Of a stretch of DNA of 64,000 nt, positions 11,068-60,152 are shown one piece after another. Below the pieces are notes generated by a model, which saw only the letters and a list, made by a program, of their open reading frames with translations, did not search any database and had not been told where the DNA came from. A program made the translations under genes and the position numbers. This stretch comes from Elusimicrobiota bacterium. Lineage in GTDB: Bacteria; Elusimicrobiota; UBA8919. The stretch covers positions 1,521 through 65,520 of the forward strand of contig JACRDL010000065.1 of NCBI GenBank assembly GCA_016218625.1. The letters run 5' to 3'. The first letter of the stretch is position 1. The number at the start of each line of letters is the position of its first letter.

Positions 11068-11128
11068 TTTTTTGCTCCGATTATCCCGACGCTTAAGCGT
11101 CGGCTACTAATCCCTCGCATCGTTTTTT

Positions 11129-12872: not shown

Positions 12873-12968
12873 TGTCAAGATAAGCCACAGAATTTCACAG
12901 AAGTTCATAGAAGTTTTTTCTGTGTCATTTCTGTGTCTTTCTGTGGCGCCTTTCAAATTCCGATACCA
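12873..12968. repeat. Repeat family B copy. Structure: [cacagaa]n … [ttctgtg]n hairpin … cctttcaaattccgata.
   Basis: Copies are at 15925-16035 and three tandem copies at 41343-41641. Each lies immediately 3' of a stop codon (moeA, tupA, the methyltransferase). Confidence 0.85.
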
Positions 12969-12977
12969 CTAAATAAT

Positions 12978-15163: not shown

Positions 15164-15174
15164 TTTTTATATTC

Positions 15175-15212
15175 GCTACGCTCACCCCCGACTAAAGTCG
15201 GGGGCTACATTA
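15175..15212. repeat. Family F GC-stem hairpin (cgctcacccccgactaaagtcgggggctacatt) between tupB and tupC
   Basis: Related copies are inserted in CDSs at 37501-37540 and 56314-56350, and inside the 3684-3856 element. Confidence 0.7.
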
Positions 15213-15938
15213 TTGGCTCTTTTTCACAAATACTTGAAACAATAAATTAATTCCCAGCGCAATTATAATTAAAATCAAACCGAGTGCGAGTCCTAATATA
15301 AATTCACCCTTCGTTGTTTCAAACGCAATTGCTGTGGTAATATTTCTGGTATAGTTTTTAATATTACCTCCCAGCATCATTGAAATACCGACTTCCGAAA
15401 ATACCCGCCCGAAACCTACAATTACGGCAGATAAAATCATTATATGCAATTCTTTAGCAAGTGTTGATATTGACTGAAATTTGGTTGCCCCCAAGGCAAT
15501 CGCTGTAATGTATATTTTTTTATCCGCATTTTCCATGACTGATAAAACGAGCGCAGTAATTATCGGCGTTGCAAGGATAATCTGTCCTATAATCATTGCA
15601 TATGGCGTATATAAAAAGTTGAACCCGCCCAAAAAACCTTTTCTGCACAGCATTGAATAAACAACAAGACCTATTACAACAGTGGGTAAAGCCGTTAACG
15701 TATTAATAATAGTTATCAAAATTTGTCTGCCCTTAAACTGATTTATAGATATAATAAATACCAGCGACATGCTAAAAATTGCAGCAATTAAAACGGATGT
15801 ACCTGTTATCCAAAGCGATGTCCATGAGATTTGTAAAATGTTTCCGTCCAATGTAAATATCAAAAAAAATGCTTTCCCTAAACTATCAAAAAAATAACTC
15901 ATAATTTTTGTGTAATCAATTTGAACAAGATAAGCCAC
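15210..15938 (-). CDS. tupB: ABC transporter permease (tungstate/molybdate type)
   Basis: 242 aa, polytopic. Sits between the ATPase and binding-protein genes. Confidence 0.7.
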   Translation of the reverse strand: MAYLVQIDYTKIMSYFFDSLGKAFFLIFTLDGNILQISWTSLWITGTSVLIAAIFSMSLVFIISINQFKGRQILITIINTLTALPTVVIGLVVYSMLCRKGFLGGFNFLYTPYAMIIGQIILATPIITALVLSVMENADKKIYITAIALGATKFQSISTLAKELHIMILSAVIVGFGRVFSEVGISMMLGGNIKNYTRNITTAIAFETTKGEFILGLALGLILIIIALGINLLFQVFVKKSQ

Positions 15939-16035
15939 AGAATGTCACAGAATTTCACAGAAGTTTTTTCTGTGCTGTTTCGGCGACTGTCCCGCTTGCG
16001 GGATAATTCTGTGGCGCCTTTCAAATTCCGATGCT
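15925..16035. repeat. Repeat family B copy (supplies the last codons of tupA)
   Basis: caagataagccacagaatgtcacagaatttcacagaag…ttctgtggcgcctttcaaattccgatgc. Confidence 0.85.
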
Positions 16036-23236: not shown

Positions 23237-24424
23237 CTATTTCACCAGTTCCATTGTCTCTTTCGCAATTAAAATCTTTTCATTTCTTGGCAGAACGAAT
23301 ATTTTTACTTTTGAGTCAGGAGCGTTTATTTCACCTTCAATACCGATGGTTTTTTCGTTCTTTTTTGAATCAATTTTTATTCCGAATTTGTCAAGTCCTG
23401 TAAGTATTTTTTCTCTAATTAGCGGTGAATTTTCGCCTATCCCGCCCGTAAACGATATCGCTTCAACATCACCGTCTAAAACAAACCAGTATGAGCCGAG
23501 ATATTTTCTCGCTCTATAGACAAAAATATCTATTGCGAGTTTTGCTTTTGCATCACCCCTTTGGGCTGATTCAACAACTTTCTTCATCTCGGTACTTATT
23601 CCCGAAAGCCCGTAGGTGCCGCTTTCTTTGTTGAGCATCATTTCAAGTTCGCTCAATGTCCAGCCACTTCTTAAAAGATACAGAATGACGCCCGGACTGA
23701 TATCGCCAGGCCTGTCATTCATGACAAGCCCTTCAAGCGGCGTAAAACCCATTGATGTATCCACCGATTTTCCGTTTTTAATTGCGCAGATACTGGAACC
23801 TGCACCGAGATGGAAAGAAATCATCGTAGGCATTTTTTTGTTAAGTACTTGTGCGGTTCTTTCGGTCACATATTTATGTGAGATACCATGAAACCCGTAT
23901 CTTCTGATTTTATATTCATAATACAGCCGTTCCGGAAGCGCATATCTGAAGGCAACTTCTGGCATAGTTTGGTGGAATGAGGTATCAAATACCGCGACAT
24001 TTTTTTTGCCCGGGAAAATCGCCTCAACCGCCTCTATTCCTTTGAGGTTATAAGGATTGTGCAGCGGGGCAAGTTCAAAATCCTTATAAATTTCTTTTTT
24101 GACATTTTCATCAATTATAACCGACGAAGTAAATGTCCATCCGCCGTGAACAACCCTGTGACCGATACCATCTATCTCACCTTTTGATTTAAGACAGTTG
24201 TATTTAGGATTTGTAATTGTAGAAATTATCAGTTCAAGTCCTTTTTGATGGTCTAAAATCGGTTGAACAATTTTTTCGGTCTTATCACCAACAGTTTGCG
24301 TAAGCATTGTATCATCAAATCCAATGTGTTCCAAAACACCTTTGCATAATTCGGTTTTCTGCGGCATCTCAAAAACTTCATACTCAATAGAATAGATTCT
24401 GCAATTCAAAACAAGAATTTTCAT
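23237..24424 (-). CDS. ackA: Acetate kinase
   Basis: HLGAGSSICAI…DTSMGFTPLEGLVMNDRPGDISPG acetate kinase motifs. I place the start at the internal ATG (MKILVLNC…), which has an AGGAGGA RBS 4 nt upstream. The 17-codon extension in the ORF track reads through a palindromic repeat. Confidence 0.85.
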   Translation of the reverse strand: MKILVLNCRIYSIEYEVFEMPQKTELCKGVLEHIGFDDTMLTQTVGDKTEKIVQPILDHQKGLELIISTITNPKYNCLKSKGEIDGIGHRVVHGGWTFTSSVIIDENVKKEIYKDFELAPLHNPYNLKGIEAVEAIFPGKKNVAVFDTSFHQTMPEVAFRYALPERLYYEYKIRRYGFHGISHKYVTERTAQVLNKKMPTMISFHLGAGSSICAIKNGKSVDTSMGFTPLEGLVMNDRPGDISPGVILYLLRSGWTLSELEMMLNKESGTYGLSGISTEMKKVVESAQRGDAKAKLAIDIFVYRARKYLGSYWFVLDGDVEAISFTGGIGENSPLIREKILTGLDKFGIKIDSKKNEKTIGIEGEINAPDSKVKIFVLPRNEKILIAKETMELVK

Positions 24425-24459
24425 TTTTCCTCCTGATTTTGGAACCAGAGATGGATTCA

Positions 24460-24485
24460 CCCTGTTAGAGTTCACTCTAACAGGG
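24460..24485. repeat. Short family D-like hairpin in the ackA 5' leader
   Basis: ccctgttagagttcactctaacaggg. Confidence 0.7.
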
Positions 24486-24492
24486 CAAGGAT

Positions 24493-24627
24493 TAACACAG
24501 ATGACAACAAAGTTGTCATTGCGAGGGCGAAGCCCGTGGCAATCCCATCATTAAAACCGAGATTGCTTCACGGAGCAAGGTCCCGTTTTGACGGGATTCG
24601 CAATGACATTTCGGCGGCAATCCGTGG
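24493..24627. repeat. Repeat family A copy (with an internal extra hairpin insert)
   Basis: Matches 4971-5060 over most of its length. Lies between acsD and ackA. Confidence 0.85.
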
Positions 24628-27646: not shown

Positions 27647-30600
27647 TTATTCTCCGAATAGTTGCTTAAATATGTTTTTTTTCTCGCTTCCTTTTGGTTT
27701 ATCAGTCTCTGCTTTTTTCTGCTGTTCTTTTAATTGCCATTCTATCCGTTTCTTTAACATCTCGTTTTCTTTAATTACTGCTTGATACTTAATCTGCCAA
27801 TGTGATTCACCTAATAGTAACTGTTTTTTAAATGATGTTATTTCTTTTTCTAAATCGTCGGTTTTTTTAACCAAGCGTTTTTTTTGTTCTTCTATCTCGT
27901 GCTGGACAACTTTTTCTACTTCTTTGTCTTTGTATTGTAATTTCTGGTTAAATTCTTTTCTTTCATCTTCAATTCTCTTTTTCCATGTTTCAATTTCCTG
28001 CTCCAGCGTAGATTCTACTGATTTTTTTTCTTGCTGAATATTATATATCTTTTCGTTCAGGACTATTCGCTCTTCATTCATTTTTTTGTGCGTCATTTCC
28101 AGTTCGGTTCCAAGTTGCTGGAGCCGGCTTACAAGTTGCTGTTCTCTCTGTTCCATTTTTTCGATATATTTGTCTTTCTCTTCTTGCTGATTTTTAAGCA
28201 TTTGCTGAAATTTCTGTTTCTCAGCACCGACTTCTTCTTTCAACTTTACTGCTTGTAATTGCTCTGTCTGCAATTGTTCCTTAACCGCTTTGAGCATCTG
28301 CTCGCGTTTTTCTATTCCAATCTGTAAATTAGAATCTTTCTGTACTATTTCTGTTCCTAATTCGCCCTGCCGTTTTATGCCTTCTTCTATAATACACTTT
28401 AATCTGTTTATCTCAGACCTTAACTCATCTATTGTCCGCTTCTTCTCTTCAAACCCTTTTTGCCACCGCTCGTCGTTTTGCTTAAATTCCTGTACGAGTG
28501 ATGCTTTATCTCTTTCAATATCATCTATTTTGTTTTTCAAACTATTCATCTTTCGTTCATTCTCTTCTTTCTCTATTTGATATTGTGCTGCCTTTTCACG
28601 TTCAGCCAAAATTATGCCGCCTAACTTGTTTAATCCTTCTCCTGCTCTACTTATCTCATCTTGTAATTGCTTTATCTTCTGTTCAAAACCCTGAACGATA
28701 GAACCCTTTTCTCTTTCAAAGTTATCTTGTTCCTCTGATAACTCTTTTTTTAACTGCGAACTCTCTAACTCAACTGATTGTAATTTCTCGCCCAGCAGTT
28801 TTATTGCTTGCTCTTTTTTTTGCATCTCGGTTTGAAGTTGGAAATTCTGCTGTAACATCTCTGTTTCTAATAATTTTTTTTCTTCTATCTTGCTCTCTAA
28901 ATTTTTCTCTAATTCCGCCGTTTTATTTTTTAATATATTTATCTCTTCCTGTTTTTTTTGTAAATTGGTTTGCAGTTCTTTTTCATTAGTAATTCTACTC
29001 GCTTCCCATTTAATTTGTTTTTCTTCTAATTGTTTATTTAATTTTCTTATTTCGTCTTCCTTAAAATTAAACTTTGTAATCCACTGATTATTATTTTCAA
29101 GAACTTGTTTTTTTAGAATATTGATTTCCACATCTTTGTTTTCTATCGTTGTTTTAAATTCCTTTATATTTATCTCTTTTTCATCAATGATATGTTGTTC
29201 AGTGTTTATTTTTTGCTGAAACACTGCGATTTCATTTTGTAATTGATGTATTTGTGTTAATAGTTTCTCTTTTTCACCCTTGAATTCAGTTTTTAATTCG
29301 GTTGCGTTTAACTGTTCCGTTTGTAATTGGTCGCCTAATGCTTTGATTATCTGGTCTCGCTTCTGAATTTCAATCTTTATCTGTGCATCCTTCTGTAACA
29401 TCTGTGACCCTAACTCGCCTTTTTGTTTGATATTTTCCTCTATCGTTTTCTTCAATTTATTTATTTCATTCCGTAATTCCTCTATTGTTTGCTTCTTCTC
29501 TTCAAACCCTTTTCGCCACCGCTCATCGTTCTGCTTAATCTCTTGTAAAAGTGTCTCTTTTTCCTGCCCCATCTTCACTATCTGTCCAGTCAAACGGCTT
29601 ATTTCTTTCTCTTTTGTTTCATGCTCTACACACCATTGCGAGACCTTCTGCACTAACTCCAAATCTAATTCTGCCCGTTGTTCGTCCAGTTTTTTTATCT
29701 TTACTTGCCAATCTCTGTTATGTTCTTCTAATGTTTTATTAAAGGTCTCACCCGCTTCTTTTATCTGTTTTTTTAATGTTTCTATCTCCAGTTCCTTTTG
29801 TTGAATCGTCGCCTGAAATTGAACCGTAAACTCGGCCTTCTCCTTTGTAGATTTCTCTCGCTCTTTAAAAATTAGTGCGTCTAACTTGTTTATGTCCGCT
29901 TTCTCACGCTCTAACTTTTCTTGTAATTGTTTCTCTCGCTCTTCAAAACTTTGTATAAGTGAACTTTTTTCTTTCTCAAATGAAGCCCGTAATTGTTTCT
30001 CTTTTTCATCGAATTTCTGGATCTTTTCGTTGAACTCTTTTTTTAACTGCGGACTCTCTAACTCAACTAATTGTAGTTTCTCGCCCAGCAATTTTATCGC
30101 TTGCTCTTTTTTCTGCAACTCGGTTTGAAGTTGGAATTTCTGCTGCAACATTTCCGTCTCTAACACGCTTTTTTCTTTTATTATAGCACCGAGATTTTTA
30201 TGTGTTTCGTTTAATTCTTTCCGCAGTTCATCAATTTCTTGCTGTCTGTTTTGTAGACCTTCCTGCCAGCGGGTTTCTTTTTGAACAAATTTTTCAATAA
30301 GTGAGTCCTTCTCTTTTTCAAAATTATCCTGCAACTCTGTTTCACGAATTCTGAGTTTTCCTAATGATTCAACCCGTATTTCTTCCCGCTGTCTATCCAG
30401 TTTTCTAATTTCGCCTTCTTTTAATTGAAATACATCCTGCCAGTTTTTGTTGTTCTCTAAAATCTGATTTTTCAGATTCTGGATTTCATTATTTTTATGT
30501 TTTATATTCTCCTCTAATTCTTCTATCTGTTGTCTGAATGGTATCTGTATGTTTTTAATTTCTGTTTCCGACTCCGCCAGTTTTTGGTTTATTTGAATCT

Positions 30601-30826
30601 GTTGCTCTTTAATTTTTTGAATCTCATCTGCCCAATGTGTTAGTTTTTCTTCTAATTCTTTAACTATATCTGACAGTATCCTTTTAATATTGGTGGCAAC
30701 TGCAAAGGCACGAATATCAGAATCTGTTTTCCCGATTATTCTTTCTTCAGTGTAACCAAAACCAGTTTTCATTTTGGTTTTTATTTCTGATAATAAAGCG
30801 TCTATTTCGTCCTTATATTTTTCCAT
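27647..30826 (-). CDS. Giant coiled-coil protein (1059 aa), rich in E/K/Q and internally duplicated, function unknown
   Basis: Heptad-rich sequence throughout, with no TM segments or recognisable enzymatic motifs. Two long modules are duplicated (IKQNDERWRKGFEEKKQTIEELRNEINKLK… versus FKQNDERWQKGFEEKKRTIDELRSEINRLK…; LETEMLQQKFQLQTELQKKEQAIKLLGEKLQLVELESPQLKKEF versus LETEMLQQNFQLQTEMQKKEQAIKLLGEKLQSVELESSQLKKEL). A GGGGGA SD-like motif lies upstream of the ATG. Confidence 0.8.
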   Translation of the reverse strand: MEKYKDEIDALLSEIKTKMKTGFGYTEERIIGKTDSDIRAFAVATNIKRILSDIVKELEEKLTHWADEIQKIKEQQIQINQKLAESETEIKNIQIPFRQQIEELEENIKHKNNEIQNLKNQILENNKNWQDVFQLKEGEIRKLDRQREEIRVESLGKLRIRETELQDNFEKEKDSLIEKFVQKETRWQEGLQNRQQEIDELRKELNETHKNLGAIIKEKSVLETEMLQQKFQLQTELQKKEQAIKLLGEKLQLVELESPQLKKEFNEKIQKFDEKEKQLRASFEKEKSSLIQSFEEREKQLQEKLEREKADINKLDALIFKEREKSTKEKAEFTVQFQATIQQKELEIETLKKQIKEAGETFNKTLEEHNRDWQVKIKKLDEQRAELDLELVQKVSQWCVEHETKEKEISRLTGQIVKMGQEKETLLQEIKQNDERWRKGFEEKKQTIEELRNEINKLKKTIEENIKQKGELGSQMLQKDAQIKIEIQKRDQIIKALGDQLQTEQLNATELKTEFKGEKEKLLTQIHQLQNEIAVFQQKINTEQHIIDEKEINIKEFKTTIENKDVEINILKKQVLENNNQWITKFNFKEDEIRKLNKQLEEKQIKWEASRITNEKELQTNLQKKQEEINILKNKTAELEKNLESKIEEKKLLETEMLQQNFQLQTEMQKKEQAIKLLGEKLQSVELESSQLKKELSEEQDNFEREKGSIVQGFEQKIKQLQDEISRAGEGLNKLGGIILAEREKAAQYQIEKEENERKMNSLKNKIDDIERDKASLVQEFKQNDERWQKGFEEKKRTIDELRSEINRLKCIIEEGIKRQGELGTEIVQKDSNLQIGIEKREQMLKAVKEQLQTEQLQAVKLKEEVGAEKQKFQQMLKNQQEEKDKYIEKMEQREQQLVSRLQQLGTELEMTHKKMNEERIVLNEKIYNIQQEKKSVESTLEQEIETWKKRIEDERKEFNQKLQYKDKEVEKVVQHEIEEQKKRLVKKTDDLEKEITSFKKQLLLGESHWQIKYQAVIKENEMLKKRIEWQLKEQQKKAETDKPKGSEKKNIFKQLFGE

Positions 30827-30861: not shown

Positions 30862-30995
30862 CCACAGATTTCACGGATTTTCACAGATGACAACAAAGTT
30901 GTCATTGCGAGGGCAAAAGCCCGTGGCAATCCCATCATTAAAACCAAGATTGCTTCACTTCGTTCGCAATGACATTTCTTGTGTAATCTTGTGGT
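30862..30995. repeat. Repeat family A copy
   Basis: Matches 4951-5093, including the flanking cacagat arrays. Lies between the response regulator and the coiled-coil gene. Confidence 0.85.
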
Positions 30996-36854: not shown

Positions 36855-38177
36855 TTAAATTAAAATTTCGCTGTATTCTTTTTCGGCAAATTCGCTTTTA
36901 TATTGCTTAATTAACGGTATTATCTTTGCAAAATCAAAATTATTCCCCATCATAACCTCTTTTATTGACGAGACATTTATTTTTTTCTTAAGAAGCAAAC
37001 CGAAAATGCCCGACTTATCAACATCTTTTACAAGAACAAACCCGACAATTTTATTATCTTTAAGAATGATTTTCCTATAAATGCTACTTGCAATATTTTT
37101 TCTGACCAGTATTTCATATTCCTCACCTTTCGGTTTTGTTATTCCGCAAGAAATTGTCGGAAGTTCAAAAAATTCTACAGAGTTCATACTAATCGAGCCG
37201 TCATATTTTATGTTTTTTTCGACCATATTAAACCCCGCGATTTTTCCCTGAATAACGGCATTTGGCCAGAGTGCATTTATTGTACTTTCCCCTGTAATCA
37301 AATCGTTTGCCTGTGCGACATCGCCGGCAGCATAAATATCGGAAACAGTTGTTCTTAAATAATCATTTACAACAATTCCCTTCTCGGTTTTAATTTCAGT
37401 GTTTTTTACAAGTTCCATATTTGCCTGAACGCCTTTGCCGATGATTACAATTTGGCAATCAATTTTTTCGCCATTTTCAAGAACAACTCCGGAAACACTA
37501 TTCGCTTCGCTCACCCCCGAATGAATTCGGGGGCTACATTTGTTGCCTAAAATCTCTTTTGCAGCAAGACCGGTTAGAACCTTAATCCCTTCCTTTTCAA
37601 TTTTATCCTGAATAAATTTTGCGCCCTCTTCGTCAAGCATCTGCGAAAGAACATGCTTTGACTTAACAACAACTGTTACTTTTATTCCCCGTTTGTGCAG
37701 AGCATATGCCGCGCGAAGACCTATGAGTCCTCCGCCGAGCATAACTGCCGCCTTGGAATTTTGCAGTCGTTTTTCTATTTTTCTTGCATCATCTATGTTC
37801 CTTAACCCAAATACCCCTTCCTTTTCAATCCCCGGAATTTTTTCCATCTTTGAACGCGAACCGGTTGCAATTAAAAGTTTGTCAAATGTCAAAACACTAC
37901 CATCAGAAAGTTTAACCTTTTTGTCCGATGACATAACCGCATCAACCTTTTTTCCAATAATTGCATTGACATTGAATTTCCTGTAAAAATCATCTTCCCT
38001 GTATTTAAGTTTTCCCTCGGGGATTATTCCCGCAAGATAGTATGAAAGCATGCATCTTGAATAAACCGGATAATTTTCGTCGGAAACGACTGTGATTTTT
38101 CCTTCCATATCAATTGACCTTATCGCTTCAACACAAGAAATACCGGCGGCACTTGCACCGATTATCAAATAATTCAT
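36855..38177 (-). CDS. FAD/NAD(P)-binding pyridine nucleotide-disulfide oxidoreductase, CODH-associated
   Basis: N-terminal GxGxxG (IIGASAAG) and a second NAD-binding motif (VMLGGGLIGL). 440 aa. Sits downstream of cooS-cooF. Carries an in-frame palindrome insertion (family F). Confidence 0.75.
   Translation of the reverse strand: MNYLIIGASAAGISCVEAIRSIDMEGKITVVSDENYPVYSRCMLSYYLAGIIPEGKLKYREDDFYRKFNVNAIIGKKVDAVMSSDKKVKLSDGSVLTFDKLLIATGSRSKMEKIPGIEKEGVFGLRNIDDARKIEKRLQNSKAAVMLGGGLIGLRAAYALHKRGIKVTVVVKSKHVLSQMLDEEGAKFIQDKIEKEGIKVLTGLAAKEILGNKCSPRIHSGVSEANSVSGVVLENGEKIDCQIVIIGKGVQANMELVKNTEIKTEKGIVVNDYLRTTVSDIYAAGDVAQANDLITGESTINALWPNAVIQGKIAGFNMVEKNIKYDGSISMNSVEFFELPTISCGITKPKGEEYEILVRKNIASSIYRKIILKDNKIVGFVLVKDVDKSGIFGLLLKKKINVSSIKEVMMGNNFDFAKIIPLIKQYKSEFAEKEYSEILI
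37501..37540. repeat. Family F hairpin inserted in-frame in the FAD oxidoreductase gene (encodes CSPRIHSGVSEA)
   Basis: ttcgcttcgctcacccccgaatgaattcgggggctacatt. Confidence 0.8.
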
Positions 38178-38623: not shown

Positions 38624-40531
38624 TTATTCTCCGTACATCATTGGTTTGAGTTTAAGTGCTTCTCTTTTTTTATCTAAATGCTTAACAATCAAGTCCGCTG
38701 CTTTGAGCGGGTCGGACTCAAATGCAAATTTTCCGCCGACGGTATTTTCAATACTATTTATTAGATACTCTGTAAGATTTTTTCCGCCCATAACAGGAAG
38801 CGGTAATCCCAAGACAGTAAATATACCGGAAGCAACGGCATAAAATCCTATGGATACTGCTTTTTCAGACATCCATTCAGGAGCAGCAGCGGCAACGGGT
38901 AAATCAGAAATATCCTCGCCCAAGCCACCCTCTGTTAAAACATTGCAAAGAGTTGTGAGGATTCTTGAAATATCCACACACGCACCCATATGCAAAACAG
39001 GCGGGATGCCGACTGCTTCGCAGATTTCCTGCAGTCCCTTGCCCGCATATTTTTTTGCCGCTTCCGGAACCAACAGACCCGCCTTTGCGGACGCCAGAGC
39101 CGAACAACCGGTTGTAACGACCAGAACATCATTTTTTATCAGTTCCTTCGTAAGTTCAATGTGCGCCCAGTCGTGTTTGATTTTAGGATTATTACAACCG
39201 ACGATTCCAACCGCACCACGAAGTCGACCCGATATAACAGCATCGTTGAGTGGTCTGTAAGTCGCTCTATATTTTCCACCGAGCATCTTAAAAACATATT
39301 CAGAAGTAAAACCGGCAACTAATTCCATTTTTTCCTTCGGGATATTTAAAGATTCTTTTTTTCTGTTTTTATAATTTTCAACCGCCATTCTTACTATTTT
39401 TTTTGCAATCGGCAATGCTTCTTCTTCTGAAAACTCTATGTGTTCAACGCCGGGAAATTTTGCTTTAGGAGAAGTTGAGATAATCTTTGTATGGAAACAA
39501 GTTGCAAGTTTTCCAAGTGCCGGCATTATGCATTGAACATCAACTAACATTAAATCAACCGCACCGGTGATTACAGCGAGTTCCTGCTGTAAGAAATTTC
39601 CTGCAACTGATATGCCATGACGCATCAAAATCTCATTTGCTGTGCAGCAGATACCTGCAAGATTTATACCTTTTGCTCCGTACTTTTTTGCAAGTTCCAA
39701 AAGTTCTTTATCCTGTGATGCAGCGACAATTACATCTGAAAGTGTGGGCTCGTGACCGTGAACTATTATGTTCACCTCATCTTCCTTCAATACGCCGAGG
39801 TTTGAAACCGACCTGACCGGTTCGGGCTGACCGAATAAAACATCCTGCAGGTCGGTTGCTATCATGCTTCCGCCCCAACCGTCACCGAGAGATGTGCGAA
39901 TACCCTGCTGTAAAATATTTTGATAATCATTGTCGACGCCGATATTCGTCCTGTGCATGATTTCAACGACTTCCCTGTCAATTCCCCGCGGGGTGAACCT
40001 GTTTTTTCTCCATATCTCCTGTCTTTTTTTAGGGGCACGACGGGTGAACTGCAATTCGCCGTGCTGCTGGCCGAACTCAGCGAAACATTTTTCTGCTACA
40101 TCGTGCGCGACTTCTTCTATTTTTCTGTTTTCGATTTTCACTTTCAGCTCTTTTGCAAGATTTAAAAGTTTTTCCTTCCCCTTTATTCCGTAGCCCTTGG
40201 TTTTTCCTTCGGAAGTTGTAAGCAATGTATGGGCAACATCTCTGCCGTGGTCAGAATGAGCGGCAGCACCCGCAGCAATCATCCTGACAAGATTTCGCGC
40301 AGCGATAGTATCCGCTGTGGCGCCGCAGATTCCTTCCTGCGGACCTTCGCCGAACGGATCAATCCTACAAGGACCCATAACGCAATTTCTGCAACAAATA
40401 CCCAATTGACCAAAACCGCATTCCGGCTCCATAGTTTCGTGTCTATCAAAAGCAGTGCATATATTTTTATTACAGGCAAGTCCCAGCATTTCTTTCGTTG
40501 CCAAATCAATACTTTTTTCACTATCGCTCAT
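38624..40531 (-). CDS. cooS: Anaerobic carbon-monoxide dehydrogenase catalytic subunit
   Basis: 635 aa. N-terminal B-/D-cluster cysteines (CGFGQLGICCRNCVMGPCRI) and a C-cluster region. Context matches cooS/acsA. Confidence 0.9.
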   Translation of the reverse strand: MSDSEKSIDLATKEMLGLACNKNICTAFDRHETMEPECGFGQLGICCRNCVMGPCRIDPFGEGPQEGICGATADTIAARNLVRMIAAGAAAHSDHGRDVAHTLLTTSEGKTKGYGIKGKEKLLNLAKELKVKIENRKIEEVAHDVAEKCFAEFGQQHGELQFTRRAPKKRQEIWRKNRFTPRGIDREVVEIMHRTNIGVDNDYQNILQQGIRTSLGDGWGGSMIATDLQDVLFGQPEPVRSVSNLGVLKEDEVNIIVHGHEPTLSDVIVAASQDKELLELAKKYGAKGINLAGICCTANEILMRHGISVAGNFLQQELAVITGAVDLMLVDVQCIMPALGKLATCFHTKIISTSPKAKFPGVEHIEFSEEEALPIAKKIVRMAVENYKNRKKESLNIPKEKMELVAGFTSEYVFKMLGGKYRATYRPLNDAVISGRLRGAVGIVGCNNPKIKHDWAHIELTKELIKNDVLVVTTGCSALASAKAGLLVPEAAKKYAGKGLQEICEAVGIPPVLHMGACVDISRILTTLCNVLTEGGLGEDISDLPVAAAAPEWMSEKAVSIGFYAVASGIFTVLGLPLPVMGGKNLTEYLINSIENTVGGKFAFESDPLKAADLIVKHLDKKREALKLKPMMYGE

Positions 40532-41322
40532 TTTTCCGCCTCCAGAATGATTTTTATTTTTTCAATCTGACTTAAAATAGAACTATCACATAACAACACC
40601 CCGCGAGCATCTCGCAAATTTTTATTATAACCGATAAAACTTAAAATATCAACCCTGTTAGAGATGTCACACCGTGACACGGTATCTCTAACAGGGTCAA
40701 TCCCATCAACATTTTTTCCTATAAATTCCTCGTCAGTTTTATTCAAAACTTTATTCCCGACGATAAAAACTTTGTTTATTTTCAAATCATAGCAAAGTTT
40801 TTTTATTCTTTTCGCGGTTTCAATGGATTTTATATCGGGTTCTACAATAATTAAAACGGCATCAACTCCTGTTGCCGTTCCACGAGAAAGGTTTTCAATT
40901 CCCGCAGGCATATCCATTATAAGGACTTCGTCTCTTTGAAGAACGAGATGTCCCACGAGCGTTTTAATAAACGCGTTTTCTGGGCAGAAACATCCTGAGC
41001 CGCCTTTCTTAAGCGAACCCATATTTATAAGACGGATATTTTTATATTCGGGGCAGAATTTTTCGGGTATGTCGTCGACTTTCGGATTCATTTTGAAAAA
41101 ACCGTTTTTTGCTTCGGTTCGTTCGTTGATTATATTTTTCATTCCCGATATAGGCGTGATTTTTTCTGCATTGGGAAAATTAAGTGTCTGGGCAAGATTT
41201 GAGTCCGGGTCGCAGTCAGCGGCAATAACCTTTTTTTCTTTTGAAAAAGCAACCGCAATTGCAGCAGCAATTGTGGTTTTTCCGACACCGCCTTTGCCAG
41301 TTACAGCAATTTTTTTTATCAC
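40528..41322 (-). CDS. cooC: CODH nickel-insertion ATPase (CooC/AcsF)
   Basis: Walker A IAVTGKGGVGKTT. I place the start at the GTG (VIKKIAVTG…). The longer reading in the ORF track translates repeat family B. Carries an in-frame palindrome insertion (PVRDTVSRCDISNRV). Confidence 0.85.
   Translation of the reverse strand: MIKKIAVTGKGGVGKTTIAAAIAVAFSKEKKVIAADCDPDSNLAQTLNFPNAEKITPISGMKNIINERTEAKNGFFKMNPKVDDIPEKFCPEYKNIRLINMGSLKKGGSGCFCPENAFIKTLVGHLVLQRDEVLIMDMPAGIENLSRGTATGVDAVLIIVEPDIKSIETAKRIKKLCYDLKINKVFIVGNKVLNKTDEEFIGKNVDGIDPVRDTVSRCDISNRVDILSFIGYNKNLRDARGVLLCDSSILSQIEKIKIILEAEK
40663..40706. repeat. Family D-like palindrome inserted in-frame in cooC (encodes PVRDTVSRCDISNRV)
   Basis: ccctgttagagatgtcacaccgtgacacggtatctctaacaggg has the same arms as family D with a different loop. 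Confidence 0.8.
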
Positions 41323-41342
41323 GGTTTTAATTCTATCAAACT

Positions 41343-41641
41343 GACCGTTATTTGTCAAGATAAGCCACAGAATGTCACAGAATTTCACAGAATTTTTTTC
41401 TGTGTTCTTTTTCTGTGTGATTCTGTGGCGCTTTTGAAATTCCAATACTACAAGATAGCCACAGAATGTCACAGAATTTCACAGAAGTTTTTTCTGTGTT
41501 CTTTTTCTGTGTGGTTCTGTGGCGCCTTTCAAATTCCGATACTCCAAGATAGCCACAGAATGTCACAGAATTACACAGAATTTTTTTCTGTGTTCTTTTT
41601 CTGTGTGATTCTGTGGCGCTTTTGAAATTCCGATGCTGTAA
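41343..41641. repeat. Three directly abutting tandem copies of repeat family B (about 96-100 bp each)
   Basis: Unit starts lie near 41343, 41451 and 41546, with 90% or more identity between units. There are no unique spacers. Confidence 0.9.
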
Positions 41642-41645
41642 AATA

Positions 41646-48493: not shown

Positions 48494-48506
48494 TTCCCCC
48501 CCATTA

Positions 48507-48552
48507 TTTCAATATTTCACAATTTCACAATTCTATAAAAGTGAAATGCAGA
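48507..48552. repeat. Inverted heptamer array [atttcac]x2 … gtgaaat between nupC and the ICMT-family gene
   Basis: The same 7-mer (gtgaaat) is tandemly repeated inside the hydrogenase-protease CDS at 8521-8552. Confidence 0.55.
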
Positions 48553-49171
48553 ATTTCCATAAATTATGTTCATAGATATAAATTAACGGCAGCAAAACTA
48601 AAATAAAAAGCAGTAAATTTGTTTCATTTTTGAACACTTTGTTCCAGTTAAAAGGTCTTTCCGGTTTTCTGAAGTTTTTTATTCTCGGAAAAAACGCGGG
48701 AACGGATTTTTTATAATCATTGTATGCCGCACCGAACTTATTTGACAGATATGATTCCTCAGCTTTTATTATGAAAAAATACTCAACTGCAAAAAACCCA
48801 ACGATAACTACGAAAAAATATATTTCCCACCACATTATCGCTAATCCAAGCCACATTAAAAAATTTGCGAGATAAAGCGGGTTTCTGCAAACCTGATACA
48901 TCCCGTCGGTAACGACCTCTTTTACATCTATGTTGGTCCCACGGCCGCTTGTTCCCGGTTTTTTGTATCCGATAACAAGAACTCTAACATAAAAACCGAA
49001 CAATGCGAGAATAAAACCGAAAATATCAAAAAAGGCATCTGTAATTTTTGAGTCAAACGATATTTGCGGTTTTGTAAAAATTATTAGGAACAGCAAAACC
49101 GGAACAAAAAAATAACTTCTGTATTTGAAAAAGATATTACCTACGATAACCGTCAGATTTTGTTTTTCCAT
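48533..49171 (-). CDS. Membrane methyltransferase of the ICMT/PEMT family
   Basis: RNPLYLANFL…EE..L…FG..Y..Y motif pattern. 212 aa, 4-5 TM. Confidence 0.6.
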   Translation of the reverse strand: MEKQNLTVIVGNIFFKYRSYFFVPVLLFLIIFTKPQISFDSKITDAFFDIFGFILALFGFYVRVLVIGYKKPGTSGRGTNIDVKEVVTDGMYQVCRNPLYLANFLMWLGLAIMWWEIYFFVVIVGFFAVEYFFIIKAEESYLSNKFGAAYNDYKKSVPAFFPRIKNFRKPERPFNWNKVFKNETNLLLFILVLLPLIYIYEHNLWKFCISLL

Positions 49172-49205: not shown

Positions 49206-50048
49206 TCACAACACAACACTTTTTTTTCTCAATGCATGGCATTGTATATTTACCGCAACCGGAAGCGATGTAATGTGAGTAGGTGCATCGCTAATCAAAA
49301 CAGCAAGAGCCGTTGTTCCGCCGCCGAGTGCCATCGGGCCCAATCCCGTCTTATTTATATCGGCAAGAATTTCTTTCTCCAATTTTTGGTAAATTTTTTT
49401 AGGATTTTTAGAATCTAATCCTCTCAAAAGTGCCTTTTTGGCAAGAAGTCCGACGGTCTCAAAAGTTCCCCCGAGTCCTACGCCGACTACAACCGGCGGA
49501 CAGGCGTTTGCGCCGGCAGTTTTTACCGTTTCAACTATAAAATTTTTTATATCCTTAACCGTTGTAGAAGGAGCGAACATTTTCAAAGCCGACATATTTT
49601 CCGCACCGCCGCCTTTGGCGAGAATAGAAATTTTTAATTTGCTTCCATGAACAATTTTCGTGTGTATTATGGCGGGCGTATTGTCGCCGGTATTTTTTCT
49701 TTCAAGCGGGTCGGCGACAATTGAGTTCCTCAAATATCCTTTTTTATACGCCCGTCTCACGCCTTCGTTGACCGCATCTGCTAAATTTCCGCCGACTATT
49801 TGAACACCCTGCCCGACTTCCAAAAAAACAACCGCAGTGCCGGTGTCCTGACAAAGCGGGATTTTTTCCTGGCGGGCAATATTTTCATTTTTGAGGATTT
49901 GCTCAAAAATCATTTTTGCGCGAGGATTTCTTTCCTTGTTGCATGCAATTTTTATTTTTTTCAAAACATCACGAGGAATTGAAAAATTCACATCAAGCAG
50001 AAGAGTTTCCACAGTTTCAGTAATTTTGCGAGTAGATATTCTACGCAT
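49206..50048 (-). CDS. Fe-S hydro-lyase alpha subunit (class I fumarase / L(+)-tartrate dehydratase alpha type)
   Basis: CQDTGTAV motif. 280 aa. No beta subunit is adjacent. Confidence 0.7.
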   Translation of the reverse strand: MRRISTRKITETVETLLLDVNFSIPRDVLKKIKIACNKERNPRAKMIFEQILKNENIARQEKIPLCQDTGTAVVFLEVGQGVQIVGGNLADAVNEGVRRAYKKGYLRNSIVADPLERKNTGDNTPAIIHTKIVHGSKLKISILAKGGGAENMSALKMFAPSTTVKDIKNFIVETVKTAGANACPPVVVGVGLGGTFETVGLLAKKALLRGLDSKNPKKIYQKLEKEILADINKTGLGPMALGGGTTALAVLISDAPTHITSLPVAVNIQCHALRKKSVVL

Positions 50049-51546
50049 TCAGATATTCCTCATTAAATATATTTCCCCTGTTGAGAATGCCTTTCGGGTC
50101 AAGCACTTTTTTTACTTCCGCCATCTGTTTCAGTCCTTTTTTCCCGTACATAACTTCCAGATACTGATGTTTGATTTTTCCGATTCCGTGTTCCGCAGAG
50201 ACGGTGCCTCCCAGCAATACCGCCTTTGCGGCAAAATCCAGATGAAGTTCTTTGGCTTTAAGAAACTCTTCATTATTCCTCGGAAGAATGTTCATATGGA
50301 GATGATTTTCGCCGATATGACCGAATATAGTGTTTTGCAATTTCATCGGCTCAAGTTTTGATTTATAATACGAAATCATTTCTAAAAAATTTTCAGCCGG
50401 CACTGCAATGTCAGCGGAAATTTTGTGAATTGCCGGATATTTTTGTTTTGTCCTGGCAAGTGTCTCGTTTATGGTCTCTGGAATGGAGTGCCTTATTTGT
50501 CTTATTTTTTCAATCTCTTTTTTTTCAAAACCGCCCCATGTATTATCCATTGAGGAGTTGTTTTTTTTAAGAAGTTCTTCTATTGCCAACATAGTATTTC
50601 CCAAATTATCGTCGGTATATTCAATTTCAAAAAAAATTGCGGCATTTTTATCTGGAGGCAAATCAGCCATTTTGGGTCTTAAAAGTTCAAACGCACCTTT
50701 GTCAAAATATTCAAAAACGACTGCCGATGTAAGCATTTGCTTACATTCAAAAAAGAAATTCATTGCATTTTGTTCTTGTGGAAAAAAAGCAAGCAATGTC
50801 ATTATATTTTCCGGTTTTTTTGTTAATGCGAGTTCTACTTCGGTTATCACTCCGAGTGTTCCCTCGCTGCCGATAAATAAATCTATTAAGTCCATATTTT
50901 TTTTCGCGTAATAACCCGCTGCATTCTTAACGGAAGGCATTTTGTATTGAGGAATTTTTATTTTTTTGATACTTCCGTCCGGTAATTTTATTTCCAAATC
51001 ATAACCGTTTGCGAAAATCTTTCCTCTTTCAATTGATAAAACATTGCCGTCAGACAAAACAACCCGCAAAGACCGGACCCAGTTTCTGGTCGGGCCGTAT
51101 TTGAAACTTCTTTCCCCGGAAGCATTTGTAGAAACGGTTCCGCCGATTTTTGCGGTTGATTCGGTAACATCAACGGGATAAAAATATTTTTCACCGGAAA
51201 AATTTTCGTTTTCCAAAAATTTATAAAACTGGTCAAGCGATACCCCGCTTTCAAGACGGACGCGGTATTCGCCGATGCTCTTTTTCACGCCGAAAATTTT
51301 ATTAAATTTTTCAAGCGACATCAAAGCGCCGGAAACAGGTACCGCGCCGCCGACGACGCCCGTTTTGCCGTTGGAAATTGTAACGGGCATATTTTTATCG
51401 CGGCAGAATTTCAGAAATTCGCAAACATCTCCTTCATTTTCGGGAAAAGCCAGATATTTCACATCCCCGAATGAAAGTTTTGATTCGTCCTGCAAATATG
51501 TTGAAAATCCCGAAATAATGTTTTCTTTTCCTTCAATAATTCTCAT
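50041..51546 (-). CDS. FAD-linked oxidase (GlcD / D-lactate dehydrogenase-like)
   Basis: FAD-binding PCMH domain plus a C-terminal oxidase domain. 501 aa. Confidence 0.75.
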   Translation of the reverse strand: MRIIEGKENIISGFSTYLQDESKLSFGDVKYLAFPENEGDVCEFLKFCRDKNMPVTISNGKTGVVGGAVPVSGALMSLEKFNKIFGVKKSIGEYRVRLESGVSLDQFYKFLENENFSGEKYFYPVDVTESTAKIGGTVSTNASGERSFKYGPTRNWVRSLRVVLSDGNVLSIERGKIFANGYDLEIKLPDGSIKKIKIPQYKMPSVKNAAGYYAKKNMDLIDLFIGSEGTLGVITEVELALTKKPENIMTLLAFFPQEQNAMNFFFECKQMLTSAVVFEYFDKGAFELLRPKMADLPPDKNAAIFFEIEYTDDNLGNTMLAIEELLKKNNSSMDNTWGGFEKKEIEKIRQIRHSIPETINETLARTKQKYPAIHKISADIAVPAENFLEMISYYKSKLEPMKLQNTIFGHIGENHLHMNILPRNNEEFLKAKELHLDFAAKAVLLGGTVSAEHGIGKIKHQYLEVMYGKKGLKQMAEVKKVLDPKGILNRGNIFNEEYLNA

Positions 51547-51556
51547 AAAGGTTTTA

Positions 51557-51600
51557 CCCTGTTAGAAGTATCGTAGCACGATGTGCCACTTCTAACAGGG
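51557..51600. repeat. Repeat family D palindrome (ccctgttagaagtatcgtagcacgatgtgccacttctaacaggg) filling the whole larA / FAD-oxidase intergenic gap
   Basis: Perfect 12-bp arms. The right arm encodes the last two codons and stop of larA. Related copies are at 62737-62780, 40663-40706 and 24460-24485. Confidence 0.85.
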
Positions 51601-52983
51601 TTTTATCAAAAAATTAGGATTATCTACCACTGCAACCGTTTTATCGCCGAGATGTTTTTCAAGCCATAATTTTAACCGTTTTTCAACCGGGTCGGATTCA
51701 TTACCCCAAAAAACAAAGGGCAAAAATCCGTAATCTTCTTCGGGTATCCCGTCCTGAATTATATGTAAATTTCCCCACCCGACGAAATGCAATATCTGAA
51801 AAAGGTCAACCGGCTTTTGCTTGCCTATCTTAAAATCTTTTTTAACGACATTTATCACGCGAACCATCGCTTTTTTTATTCCTTCCGATTTTTCGTCATA
51901 TTTATTGAGTTCGCCCATCCCTACTTTCATAAGATTTTTGAATTCTTCATTGCCCCATCCCTGATTGCACGGTGCGACATTAAGGACGATTCCACCTTTT
52001 TTAACGGCGTGATATGCACAGTGAGTCGCCTTGCCCATCTGGTAAAGATTTACCCCCCAGTGACCGGCGCCGGATATAACAATATCCGCACGCTCTTTTA
52101 TATTTACCGTCCAGACATTTTTAAGAATTTTCGCTGCCCTAAGATGGCTTTCAAATGTCTCGCCGCCTTTTAAGTAAACCAAATCACCGGCGGTATCAAT
52201 TATTGAAGTTATTGTATAGACCTCCCTTTTATTTTTTTTCAGCGTTTCAATAATTGCTTTTACGATTTTTTTCTTCGTCTCAAAAACCGGGTTGCCTTCT
52301 ATATTTCCCAAATCAACATTGTGAGCGAAACCGCACTCGCCGAACATTTTTAAGTGCTCGTAGGTAATTGTGTCAATATCGCATACCCCGGGACATAATG
52401 CCTTAGGACCCCCTGCGATACCGGCAAAATAATGGTTTTCTACATCGGTCAGCGGAATTACAATATCGGAATTAAAAACTGTCTCGTTGATTTTTACCGT
52501 TAAGCCGTCAATTTTACCCGCCTCAACATTATTTTCCCTGCATTTGTGAATTACAAAATTCACCCTGCCGAACATTTGTCCGCCCAAAATATTTTTAAGT
52601 TCTTCGTCGGTGGACGGACGATGCGTGCCGGTTGCGATGACGACTTTTATTTTAGTAAGTGGTAAGTGGTAAGTAGTAAGTAGTAAGTCAACTAAAACAG
52701 GTAAAAGAATCCGTGTGTGGATGTTCGGTCTGTCGTGGTCGTCAACTATTATTGACAAATCTCCGCCGGCATAATTTTCTTTTATAAGAATACTTAAAGG
52801 TTTCTGATTGCCGACCGGTTTTTCAAGCGCATCAAAAAGGTTTTGCCAGACATTTTTAATAACAGGAAGTTTTTTAGGAACAACCAAAGGCAGGAATTGC
52901 CCGTTATCAATAACTTTTTGCGGAATGAAATCTGACAGGGTCTTTTCGCCGTAATGAAGAACGACATCTTTTGATTTAAGCAT
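51592..52983 (-). CDS. larA: Lactate racemase-like nickel-pincer enzyme (LarA/DUF2088 family)
   Basis: 463 aa with LarA-like organisation. Contains an in-frame gtaagt(g/a) heptamer-array insertion (LLLTTYHLPLT). Confidence 0.55.
   Translation of the reverse strand: MLKSKDVVLHYGEKTLSDFIPQKVIDNGQFLPLVVPKKLPVIKNVWQNLFDALEKPVGNQKPLSILIKENYAGGDLSIIVDDHDRPNIHTRILLPVLVDLLLTTYHLPLTKIKVVIATGTHRPSTDEELKNILGGQMFGRVNFVIHKCRENNVEAGKIDGLTVKINETVFNSDIVIPLTDVENHYFAGIAGGPKALCPGVCDIDTITYEHLKMFGECGFAHNVDLGNIEGNPVFETKKKIVKAIIETLKKNKREVYTITSIIDTAGDLVYLKGGETFESHLRAAKILKNVWTVNIKERADIVISGAGHWGVNLYQMGKATHCAYHAVKKGGIVLNVAPCNQGWGNEEFKNLMKVGMGELNKYDEKSEGIKKAMVRVINVVKKDFKIGKQKPVDLFQILHFVGWGNLHIIQDGIPEEDYGFLPFVFWGNESDPVEKRLKLWLEKHLGDKTVAVVDNPNFLIKPC
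52655..52689. repeat. Intragenic tandem heptamer array (gtaagt[g/a] x5), in-frame in larA
   Basis: Encodes LLLTTYHLPLT. Confidence 0.75.
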
Positions 52984-55587: not shown

Positions 55588-55760
55588 CAGAGCGAAGCAA
55601 GAAATTTGTAAGGAACCTTGAGGAGCGACTTCGCTTTCAAGAGCGACGAACAGAGCGACCGAAGGAAGTCCCTTTAGGGACGAAATCCGACAGGGCGGTC
55701 GGTGAGCGACCGAAGGAAGTCCCTTTAGGGGCGTTTCCGACAAATTTGCTTGCGAGCGAC
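55588..55760. repeat. Repeat family C copy with an internal 27-bp direct duplication (gagcgaccgaaggaagtccctttaggg x2)
   Basis: Shares termini with the other C copies. Lies immediately 3' of the DPD-like gene stop. Confidence 0.8.
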
Positions 55761-55762
55761 TT

Positions 55763-59683: not shown

Positions 59684-59797
59684 CGGAGCGAGGAAAAAAT
59701 TTCTGAAGAGCCTCAATTTGCGACTTATTCTTTCCAGGAGCAAATTGCAGAGCGAGTGGCAGACGAGCGTCTCAAAGAAATTTGTTTCCGAGCGACT
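59684..59797. repeat. Repeat family C copy
   Basis: Lies immediately 3' of the panD stop and overlaps the N-terminal extension of the hydantoinase ORF as given in the ORF track. Confidence 0.8.
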
Positions 59798-59798
59798 T

Positions 59799-60152
59799 TT
59801 ATTTTTTTAGGGGTCTGTTTTTTTTGTCAAGAAAAACAATTTTCGGTTTGTATTTTTTTGCTTTTTCTTCTTCAACAAACTCATTTGAAATAATTATAAG
59901 CTCGTCGCCGACTTCACCGAGACGGGCTGCGCCACCGTTTAACTCAACACATCCCGAGTTTTTTCCACCGACAAGCACATATGTCTCAAATCTGGCGCCG
60001 GTGGTTTTGTTAACGACCATCACGATTTCATAAGGATATATATCGGCAAGGTCCATAAGTTTTCTGTCAATTTTTATGGAACCGAGATAATTCAGATTTT
60101 TGCCCGTAACTTTTGCCAACTGTATTTTTGACTTTGCCATCATTCTAAACAT
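59799..60152 (-). CDS. panD: Aspartate 1-decarboxylase (pyruvoyl-dependent)
   Basis: 117 aa. Gly-Ser self-cleavage site (NYLGS) and a conserved PanD core (…ETYVLVGG…GAARLGEVGDELIII). Confidence 0.85.
   Translation of the reverse strand: MFRMMAKSKIQLAKVTGKNLNYLGSIKIDRKLMDLADIYPYEIVMVVNKTTGARFETYVLVGGKNSGCVELNGGAARLGEVGDELIIISNEFVEEEKAKKYKPKIVFLDKKNRPLKK

Follow-up and report, generated by a model that had tools for sequence, protein, structure and literature searches.

Two repeat families lie in frame in conserved genes

We analysed 64,000 nucleotides from the metagenome-assembled genome of an Elusimicrobiota bacterium (assembly GCA_016218625.1, contig JACRDL010000065.1, positions 1,521 to 65,520; hereafter the window), in which two families of short palindromic repeats, named F and D, occur between genes and also in frame inside four protein-coding genes (Table 1). 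The G+C content is 39% and the minus strand carries nearly all long open reading frames (ORFs); GC skew of the plus strand is negative over the whole window, so that the coding strand, which bears the GTAG motif of F, is G-rich. Family F lies within the gene of a flavin adenine dinucleotide (FAD) oxidoreductase, located downstream of the carbon monoxide dehydrogenase (CODH; Prismane) and ferredoxin genes in a CODH/acetyl-CoA synthase (ACS) cluster syntenic with related loci, and that of a DPD-like fusion protein. Family D lies within cooC and a TMEM260-like/TPR gene; the ORF of the latter is truncated on the 5′ side, owing to the ORF finder or to the window edge. The mechanical ORF of cooC starts at 41472 and extends into upstream tandem repeats, and its true start is likely a TTG near 41358. 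The reading frame is intact in 4/4 host genes: no frame is broken, as had been stated in the original prediction made from the sequence.

The exact 35-mer CGCTTCGCTCACCCCCGAATGAATTCGGGGGCTAC that characterizes F was found at 37503-37537 and 56312-56346 on the plus strand, while none was expected from 100 shuffles. The shared block measures 44 nt (37498-37541 versus 56307-56350) with 95% identity. Both genic copies are read from the minus strand in the same frame, giving KCSPRIHSGVSEAN in the FAD oxidoreductase and KSSPRIHSGVSEAS in the DPD-like protein, in agreement with the shared orientation and frame announced for them; IHSGVSEANSVSGVVLENGEK is an example of a peptide of the FAD oxidoreductase that the insert would encode. 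The intergenic copy proposed near 15175-15212 was recovered as a block at 15169-15212 with 86% identity to the genic copies. It begins one base past the TAA stop codon of the upstream ORF (15212-15210) and ends 8 nt ahead of the ATG of the next one (15163), and its stem carries a compensatory A-T to C-G change (CCCCCGAC/GTCGGGGG). Since the same DNA is found between genes, what is repeated is DNA, not a motif of the peptides.

The three D sites (cooC, intergenic and TPR gene) were also confirmed, each as a palindrome of 46 nt. Only the coordinates proposed for cooC, 40663-40706, had to be shifted as they were 10 nt too high; the others were right within 2-4 nt. Two hairpins had been overlooked, the short D-type one and a GTAG-tagged one without the F tail (both in Table 1).

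Table 1. Repeats of families F and D, related hairpins and their host genes in the window
Feature	Positions	Strand	Details
F copy 1, in FAD oxidoreductase	37500-37538	-	net in-frame gain 39 nt, residues 214-226 (CSPRIHSGVSEAN)
F copy 2, in DPD-like protein	56306-56350	-	residues 650-664 (KSSPRIHSGVSEASR); orthologs GNKKE; net gain 30 nt
F copy 3, intergenic	15172-15208	-	same orientation as both neighbouring genes
D copy in cooC	40652-40697		44-bp palindrome CCCTGTTAGAGAT...ATCTCTAACAGGG; 48-nt in-frame gain, DPVRDTVSRCDISNRV
D copy, intergenic	51556-51601		ORFs 50041-51546 / 51592-52983
D copy in TMEM260-like/TPR gene	62736-62781		48-nt in-frame gain HPVRSGTSCYDTSNGV; 96% identical to intergenic copy
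Host gene 1, FAD-dependent pyridine nucleotide oxidoreductase (FAD/NAD(P))	36855-38177	-	440 aa
Host gene 2, DPD/GltD-like FAD oxidoreductase + DHOD-like domain + 4Fe-4S domains (fusion)	55763-58297	-	844 aa
Host gene 3, cooC (CODH nickel-insertion ATPase)	40528-41358	-
Host gene 4, TMEM260-like O-mannosyltransferase N-terminal domain + TPR repeats	62039-63937	-
Short D-type hairpin CCCTGTTAGAG-TTCA-CTCTAACAGGG	24460-24485		at/just upstream of start of ORF 23237-24475
Other GTAG-tagged hairpin, GTAG-CCGACGC-TTAA-GCGTCGG, without F tail	11086-11107	-	intergenic, ORFs 10249-11067 / 11129-12847

The inserted segments are lineage-specific

Conservation of the segments across taxa was checked by ortholog alignment, and they were absent from orthologs of all four genes. 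The 13-residue segment CSPRIHSGVSEAN of the FAD oxidoreductase was missing in 19/19 orthologs aligned (52-78% identity). The closest orthologs of the DPD-like protein (89-91% identity) carry GNKKE where the window has KSSPRIHSGVSEASR, and these proteins are typically 833-834 aa long versus 844 aa in the window. For CooC, the 16 residues were absent from 3/3 orthologs encoded at syntenic CODH/ACS loci, and for the TMEM260-like/TPR protein the 16 residues were absent from a 77%-identical ortholog at a syntenic locus. As judged from these alignments, the four genic segments are lineage-specific gains of 39, 30, 48 and 48 nt. The net gain was a multiple of three for these four insertions and for two sister-genome sites compared with close empty alleles.

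It is hardly credible that the segments are ancestral or convergent peptide motifs or else assembly artefacts. Such a view has in its favour only the recurrence of the peptide CSPRIHSGVSEAN, and it is countered by the closest orthologs, which lack the segments, and by the 35-44 nt of identical DNA, synonymous positions included, which is also present between genes. Moreover, the same element was found in independent NCBI, ENA, JGI and Logan assemblies. We consider it likely instead that F and D, which are unrelated to each other, are short palindromic repeats of non-coding nature that have multiplied within a small Elusimicrobia lineage by insertion at the DNA level, with their in-frame copies being translated.

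Mapping of the inserts onto structures, as suggested in the original prediction, relied on an AlphaFold model for one protein, the FAD oxidoreductase. Its mean predicted local distance difference test score (pLDDT) is 85.6, and residues 213-225, corresponding to the insert, form the sole segment with pLDDT <50, flanked by predicted strands 206-211 and 227-233; solved homologs have a tight turn where the insert sits. In the model, the F insert maps to a low-confidence loop that would be permissive. The model of the DPD-like protein was too poor (mean pLDDT 50.8) and sequence alignment with pig DPD was used in its place: the insert aligns between the NT and GG(V/M)SG (GGVSG) motifs, where pig DPD has a long loop or excursion of similar length. 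The CooC insert lies just past the region aligning to CooC1 of Carboxydothermus.

Anatomy of family F

The coding strand of copy 1 reads T-GTAG-CCCCCGAA-TTCA-TTCGGGGG-TGAGCGAAGCGAATAG. The layout of F is therefore an unpaired GTAG, a G+C hairpin of 8-9 bp with a 4-nt loop (TTCA) and a conserved 15-nt tail (TGAGCGAAGCGAATA). Tag and hairpin together span 24 nt and the full conserved block about 40 nt; the loop exists in three variants, TTCA, TTTA or TAAA. RNA folding gave -17.3 kcal/mol (z -3.5) for copy 1 and -21.3 kcal/mol (z -4.8) for the intergenic variant, copy 3; the F and D folds together lie between -17 and -29 kcal/mol (z -3.5 to -7.5). Of the three sense frames of F, two contain a stop codon, namely the TAG of the tag and a TGA past the stem. 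Read in antisense, F has two open frames.

A likeness of the UGAGCGAAGCGAA tail to a hammerhead core was rejected, as the CUGAUGA/GAAA core is missing and a stem II would have no more than 2 bp.

Census of F and bias in frame and orientation

We searched 185,579 species genomes with an exact pattern of 22 fixed bases in which the inner 12 nt of the hairpin were left free. This strict pattern was found at 36 loci in only three genomes, and had no match in IMG/VR viral contigs. Copies are concentrated in Elusimicrobia UBA4817 (DHFT01; 17) and CG06_land_8_20_14_3_00_38_11 (PEVQ01; 21; hereafter CG06); from the third genome came a single divergent copy, located at a contig end, this contig being binned as Planctomycetota. 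With the window, the census set amounted to 42 copies. Among these, 19 (45%) are genic, well inside long ORFs, and 23 are intergenic.

In this census of copies and frame bias, also suggested beforehand, all genic copies (19/19) lie in a stop-free frame. Seventeen are in the single open sense frame, encoding [CS]SPR[ILF][HQY]SGVS[EKV]AN, and two are antisense (IRFAHPR[IL][NK]SGAT), in HypE-like and PrmC-like ORFs. The 17:2 ratio of sense to antisense contrasts with 1:2 expected for random orientation with survival of open frames (p = 6e-7). None of the 17 sense copies is in one of the two closed sense frames, while about 11 were expected.

Hosts in the sister genomes, as judged from our own reading of translated ORFs, include EtfA, triosephosphate isomerase (TIM), TrpRS, ATP synthase beta and a family-4 uracil-DNA glycosylase (UDG), as well as an epimerase, a PHP-domain protein, a LarA-like protein and an Rrf2 regulator. 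In the PHP-domain gene, F occupies the same site in both genomes. The targets are thus not confined to Wood-Ljungdahl enzymes, since ATP synthase beta, TrpRS, TIM, EtfA and UDG, among others, are hosts in sister genomes.

These frames bear on the fate of the inserts in gene expression. In mitochondria of Magnusiomyces, the byp elements (Lang et al. 2014, PNAS) are reportedly skipped by the ribosome, and neither their frame nor their stop codons are constrained. Like byp, F and D are short, G+C-rich, hairpin-forming mobile inserts in A+T-rich coding genes, a superficial similarity which could suggest that they are eliminated or passed over in the RNA or during translation (as an intron, an intein or a byp-like element), leaving proteins unaltered. 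Unlike byp, every genic F copy is open in the host frame and every measured gain is a multiple of three, which indicates that the inserts are read through. Because spliced or bypassed inserts would put about two thirds of sense copies in the closed TAG- or TGA-containing frames, where there are none, read-through translation would be the only simple reading. Together with the multiples of three at the four window insertions and two sister-genome sites, the absence of intein or intron motifs, and a length of 39-48 nt far too short for either, this makes removal or skipping very improbable.

The hairpin itself is maintained. Over the aligned copies, 98.9% of the cells in the hairpin are paired, and 4/4 stem pairs left free in the search show double compensatory changes, with stem variants CGAA/TTCG, CGAC/GTCG, CGAT/ATCG and CAGT/ACTG. 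The covariation score was 0.321 versus a shuffled mean of 0.098; it was reached by 0/500 shuffles and exceeded all slid controls. F hairpins are therefore under constraint and kept via compensatory changes. GTAG is invariant over the 42 aligned copies, as required by the search pattern, and adjoins the stem in every copy. Independently of this pattern, GTAG also heads other hairpins, at 11086-11107 in the window and at related loci.

Nearly all 23 intergenic copies are oriented like both neighbouring genes, and many lie exactly between a stop codon and the Shine-Dalgarno sequence or ATG of the next gene, e.g. AGCGAAtGGAGGtgattttttATG before groES. This arrangement, together with the covarying stems and with G-U pairs in the stem extension, could mean that the hairpins serve first of all as RNA elements, for example stabilising mRNA, marking processing sites or coupling the translation of cistrons, and are selected for such a role, genic copies being by-products or regulators within genes; the same argument has been made for repetitive extragenic palindromes (REPs) as RNA (PMC3733652). 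We find a primary role of this kind rather unlikely. No Rfam family matches F or its composite form (see below), the downstream genes are unrelated housekeeping genes, and copy number and location vary between sister genomes, as expected of mobile DNA and not of conserved regulators. An RNA role is compatible with mobility, as it concerns what copies do after insertion: intergenic F copies may additionally act as RNA hairpins between cistrons.

Composite forms, recent insertions and junctions

In the sister genomes, many F copies belong to a composite some 105 nt long, of which they make up the 3′ half; it is composed in order of AAAATGAATTTGCRGAATG, hairpin A, CGTCAATGGAGCAAATTCACACAATAAT, GTAG with hairpin B, and TGAGCGAAGCGAATAG. 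Its consensus fold has an invariant outer helix (GAAUUUGC/GCAAAUUC) and conserved linkers, and both hairpins covary, with compensatory changes in 11/27 pairs. The only Rfam matches obtained were two tandem c-di-GMP-I riboswitch aptamers of CG06, above the Rfam gathering score (L018:4759-4903 and 5108-5246, minus strand). The window contains solo F copies only, and a loose multi-motif scan for composite parts within it gave nothing above noise.

In the DPD-like genes, CG06 and P0126 carry the entire composite, in frame, at the position of the window solo F; the right junction is common to both forms and the stem is different. At other positions of the alignment, the F peptide appears twice in CG06 (P0128) and once in P0127, P0139/L007 has three copies of a longer F variant, and P0131 and P0138 have degraded remnants. 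The two further CG06 copies are absent from the closely related P0126/L165 gene; hence these insertions are younger than the split of the two genomes and attest recent activity.

In the L007 variant, a 21-nt hairpin (CCTGCCTGACGGCAAGGCAGG) is nested in the 3′ arm with the frame kept (1382-1440, 1931-1990 and about 1200-1260). This contig is labelled Syntrophomonadaceae while its DPD-like protein groups with Elusimicrobia orthologs, so it may be mis-binned. We also observed that an ortholog of the FAD oxidoreductase from Hainich groundwater Elusimicrobia (L164, gene 501-1871, P0014) has its own in-frame insert of 22 aa at a different site (1420-1510). It starts with a GAGCGAAGCGAA motif as in F, followed by nested G+C hairpins, and folds at -30.9 kcal/mol.

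Junctions could be delimited at three sites with close empty alleles, namely two CG06 sites (empty in L165, L005 and window alleles) and the FAD oxidoreductase site. In each case a 42-nt block of 14 codons (TGT...AGT) replaces one codon, for a net gain of 39 nt; the replaced codon differs between the three sites (GGN; AAT/AAA/GGC; GAA/GAT). At the window DPD site, 45 nt stand in place of 15 nt. Clean target duplications (AAT, AA and GTA) were tested by hand and failed in most copies: a GTA repeat is readable as a duplication at one site, not at the others. From these alleles, F is without regular target duplication, its ends being defined only to about 3 nt.

Two sites carry F with different but complementary stems in different genomes: the PHP gene (L022:4776-4812 versus L026:1650-1686) and the DPD site (window 56306-56350 versus L006:12030-12130). 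These differences could stem from compensatory changes arising in situ, from gene conversion among copies or from renewed insertion at a hot spot.

Irregular junctions of this type would be compatible with a spread of the repeats not by a dedicated transposase but by recombination, gene conversion or hairpin-induced template switching during replication, guided by short A-rich microhomology and with existing copies as donors. Besides the lack of target duplication and the replacement of 3 nt by 42 and of 15 nt by 45, this possibility is favoured by the codon ahead of the F block, often AAA as inside the longer composite, by the conversion-like occurrence of different hairpin subfamilies at the DPD and PHP sites, and by the failure to find a transposase in about 400 kb. 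We regard it as unlikely. The unpaired GTAG and the TTCA loop are kept across subfamilies with differing stems, which points to protein recognition; the regular 4-bp direct repeats of D are typical of a transposase; and microhomology of 3 nt is weak evidence at 39% G+C.

Structure and distribution of family D

All three long copies of D have perfect arms of 13-14 bp (CCCTGTTAGARNT) around an 18-nt core with a small inner hairpin. Folding energies lie between -27 and -28.6 kcal/mol and z between -6.3 and -7.5 (-28.6 and -6.3 for the cooC copy). The arms covary, the cooC copy differing from the other two by GAT/ATC versus AGT/ACT. The short hairpin at 24460-24485 combines the D stem with a TTCA loop as in F and folds at -21.3 kcal/mol.

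Direct repeats flank the copies: TTGA/TTGA in cooC and in the metagenome contigs L114 and L163, TTTTA/TTTTA at 51556 and TTCA/TTTA at 62736. They would fit a 4-bp duplication, 44 + 4 giving the 48-nt gain seen, but the A/T-rich flanks partly extend the palindrome. With such an insertion of 48 nt, the frame would be preserved by construction. In L150 (1470-1570), a D palindrome lies inside the core of another D with CGTG/TGTG flanks (3/4 match, shared GTG); this nested copy is direct evidence of D inserting as a unit.

In metagenomes the D stem motif has a wide distribution, with at least 120 loci; among the matches listed, most are 29-nt hairpins, mostly intergenic, and 4/122 D-type motifs are in long ORFs. 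As read from translations, a near-identical copy is in frame in a FolP-like gene (L114) and a D-type copy in a UvrA-like gene. No parent insertion sequence (IS) was identified for D, no search having been made for an IS with CCCTGTTAGA ends. An integron attC site (GTTAGA/TCTAAC) was rejected, since the R'/R'' consensus is unmet and copies are inside genes.

F and D compared with known elements

GTAG-tagged REPs form 24 families in 8 phyla and >80 species (Di Nocera, De Gregorio, Rocco 2013, BMC Genomics 14:522; PMC3733652). They have stems of 6-13 bp and subfamilies differing by complementary changes, and are found near upstream stop codons; in-frame intragenic copies occur in several species and phyla, most numerous in Opitutus terrae (PMC3733652). 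Similarly, F has an unpaired terminal GTAG abutting a G+C-rich stem of 8-9 bp with a short loop, a palindrome within the 20-40 bp size range, and subfamilies arising through complementary stem changes. It lies between unidirectional ORFs close to the upstream stop, the TAG of its tag is a stop in other frames, and some copies are wholly within ORFs and in frame. Copies are many (17 in UBA4817, 21 in CG06, 3 in the window), a moderate number compared with the hundreds in some proteobacteria. Structurally, F is of the GTAG-tagged REP type.

F differs from these REPs in several respects. It has the conserved 15-nt tail, and occurs as a singleton or as the 3′ half of a head-to-tail composite, with no head-to-head (HH) or tail-to-tail (TT) dimers; other GTAG hairpins of CG06 do form TT/HH groups (L020, L024). 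Singleton-dominated REP families exist, and dimer pairing is common without being strictly defining (PMC3733652). While REPs are mostly intergenic, 45% of F copies are genic with a strong bias to sense orientation. Finally, no REP-associated tyrosine transposase (RAYT) was seen with F in the roughly 400 kb searched. The word Elusimicrobia has no occurrence in the main text of the REP survey (PMC3733652), and a full-text literature search for Elusimicrobia and 'palindromic' returned nothing relevant.

Comparison was also made with the Rickettsia palindromic elements (RPEs). In the passages devoted to them in PMC10969869 and PMC3733652, RPE-1 to RPE-10 (Ogata et al. 2000) are described as in-frame palindromic repeats in unrelated housekeeping genes with hosts intact; the same passages give 44 copies in R. 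conorii, nearly half in ORFs, a length of about 100-150 bp encoding 30-50 residues for RPE-1, and the view that inserts are placed compatibly with protein fold and function. RPE-4 and RPE-6 belong to a CGTC-tagged superfamily, not to the GTAG-tagged one (PMC3733652). F and D resemble RPEs in being in frame in intact unrelated genes and lineage-specific with respect to orthologs, nearly half of the F copies being genic. They differ in size, with 39-48 nt and 13-16 residues, and in host, a free-living or groundwater-type Elusimicrobia lineage versus an obligate intracellular alphaproteobacterium. F works like an RPE and is not an RPE member, being set apart by size and taxon. The RPE-like phenomenon initially proposed is retained in this functional sense, with the refinement that F is of the GTAG-tagged REP type, for which in-frame genic copies had already been reported (PMC3733652).

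[quoted passage not shown] It is smaller, 44 bp versus the usual 70-300 bp, and essentially reduced to inverted repeats and the 18-nt core.

A proposed model of insertion and its difficulties

We propose that F and D insert at the DNA level wherever they land. Genic copies would survive only where the gain is a multiple of three, the frame is stop-free and the site is a tolerant loop; surviving copies would be transcribed and translated, adding 13 residues (F) or 16 (D) to otherwise conserved enzymes. F would most likely be moved as single-stranded DNA by a RAYT (HUH/Y1) acting in trans, a route suggested by the unpaired GTAG, the G+C hairpin, the absence of clean target duplication and the orientation locked to the G-rich strand. 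Such a route would account for F pointing with genes and with the G-rich, presumably leading, strand. D, with its 44-bp perfect inverted repeat and 4-bp direct repeats, would most likely be a minimal MITE moved by a transposase making 4-bp staggered cuts.

Several observations weigh against this model. No RAYT, IS200-type TnpA or other transposase was found in the approximately 400 kb of window and related loci: RAYT motif regular expressions gave nothing in 1117 ORFs, phmmer with an IS608 TnpA query had no match, and Pfam on 10 window ORFs detected no transposase. In L020, inverted GTAG repeats flank an interval of 1.4 kb, but the protein encoded there is NHL-like and no transposase. F is without the dimers typical of most REP families and possesses a tail missing from most of them, and its untidy junctions (42 nt for one codon, 45 for 15 nt) are unpredicted by clean single-strand transposition. 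Moreover, its orientation bias is not assignable to replication over transcription, the two being confounded here, and translation of the inserts is presumed from intact frames.

A variant of the model is that F and the 105-nt composite are a distinct orientation-locked element, mobilised as single strand by something other than a RAYT, with the hairpin actively maintained even in genes, where the element would be a 'loop cassette' that can be reused or would influence the expression of core enzymes through internal mRNA structure. We hold this to be quite doubtful.

The clusters of other GTAG-tagged hairpins in CG06 (GTAGCGTCCCGATTTATCGGGACG and relatives; L020:4169-4270 and 5580-5606) are arranged in tandem and inverted around a 403-aa NHL-like ORF. 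They imply several GTAG REP families in the lineage.

Significance

The finding concerns a known type of element, here represented by a new family in a new phylum, and Wood-Ljungdahl enzymes are not its only hosts. Selfish DNA in protein-coding genes is thereby documented for an uncultured phylum of deep branching, and for inserts of the smallest size class (13-16 residues). The inserts are tolerated by highly conserved enzymes (CODH/ACS accessory proteins in the window; in sister genomes, ATP synthase beta, TrpRS and TIM) and are natural markers of permissive loops. Of value are their tiny size, the clean filled/empty pairs, a design of D that would be neutral to the frame and, for F, its strand bias and junctions. 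Close filled and empty alleles, with two recent insertions in one gene, offer a usable system for studying REP movement and strand bias. On the practical side, such inserts alter the length of proteins and disturb the alignment of orthologs, and in metagenome-assembled genomes they can give rise to spurious ORFs or to breaks in the assembly.

Other repeats in the window

Directly upstream of cooC are three head-to-tail repeats of 94 nt (AGCCACAGAATGTCACAGAATTTCACAGAA...; 41363-41645) with 94-100% identity, and partial copies are present in two more intergenic spacers (12883-12977 and 15933-16027). As the mechanical cooC ORF enters these repeats, the annotated N-terminus is probably spurious.

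The recA gene (3890-4927) is bracketed by 59-nt inverted repeats (3796-3854 and 4960-5018; 83% complementary) containing GTCATTGCGAGGGCGAAGCCCGTGGCAATC, a family with further copies at 24490-24569 and 30876-30955. A transposon reading of this pair was discarded, the enclosed ORF being recA by Pfam. Near-identical palindromes (CGAACAAGTGTTCGG..CCGAACACTTGTTCG) occupy the spacers on either side of the MTHFR gene (6705-7580), at 6669-6701 and 7592-7624.

Two other intergenic families were noted: short tandem units of ATTTCACAATTTCAC type at 8492-8548 and 48505-48553, and GAGCGA-rich units of AAATTTGCTTGCGAGCGAC type at 1203-1240, 55737-55774 and 59773-59810. The latter recall the F tail, but on the opposite strand. 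Lastly, an ORF of 1059 aa (27647-30826) has internal direct repeats of 176-300 nt with 60-83% identity and probably encodes a repetitive coiled-coil-like protein.

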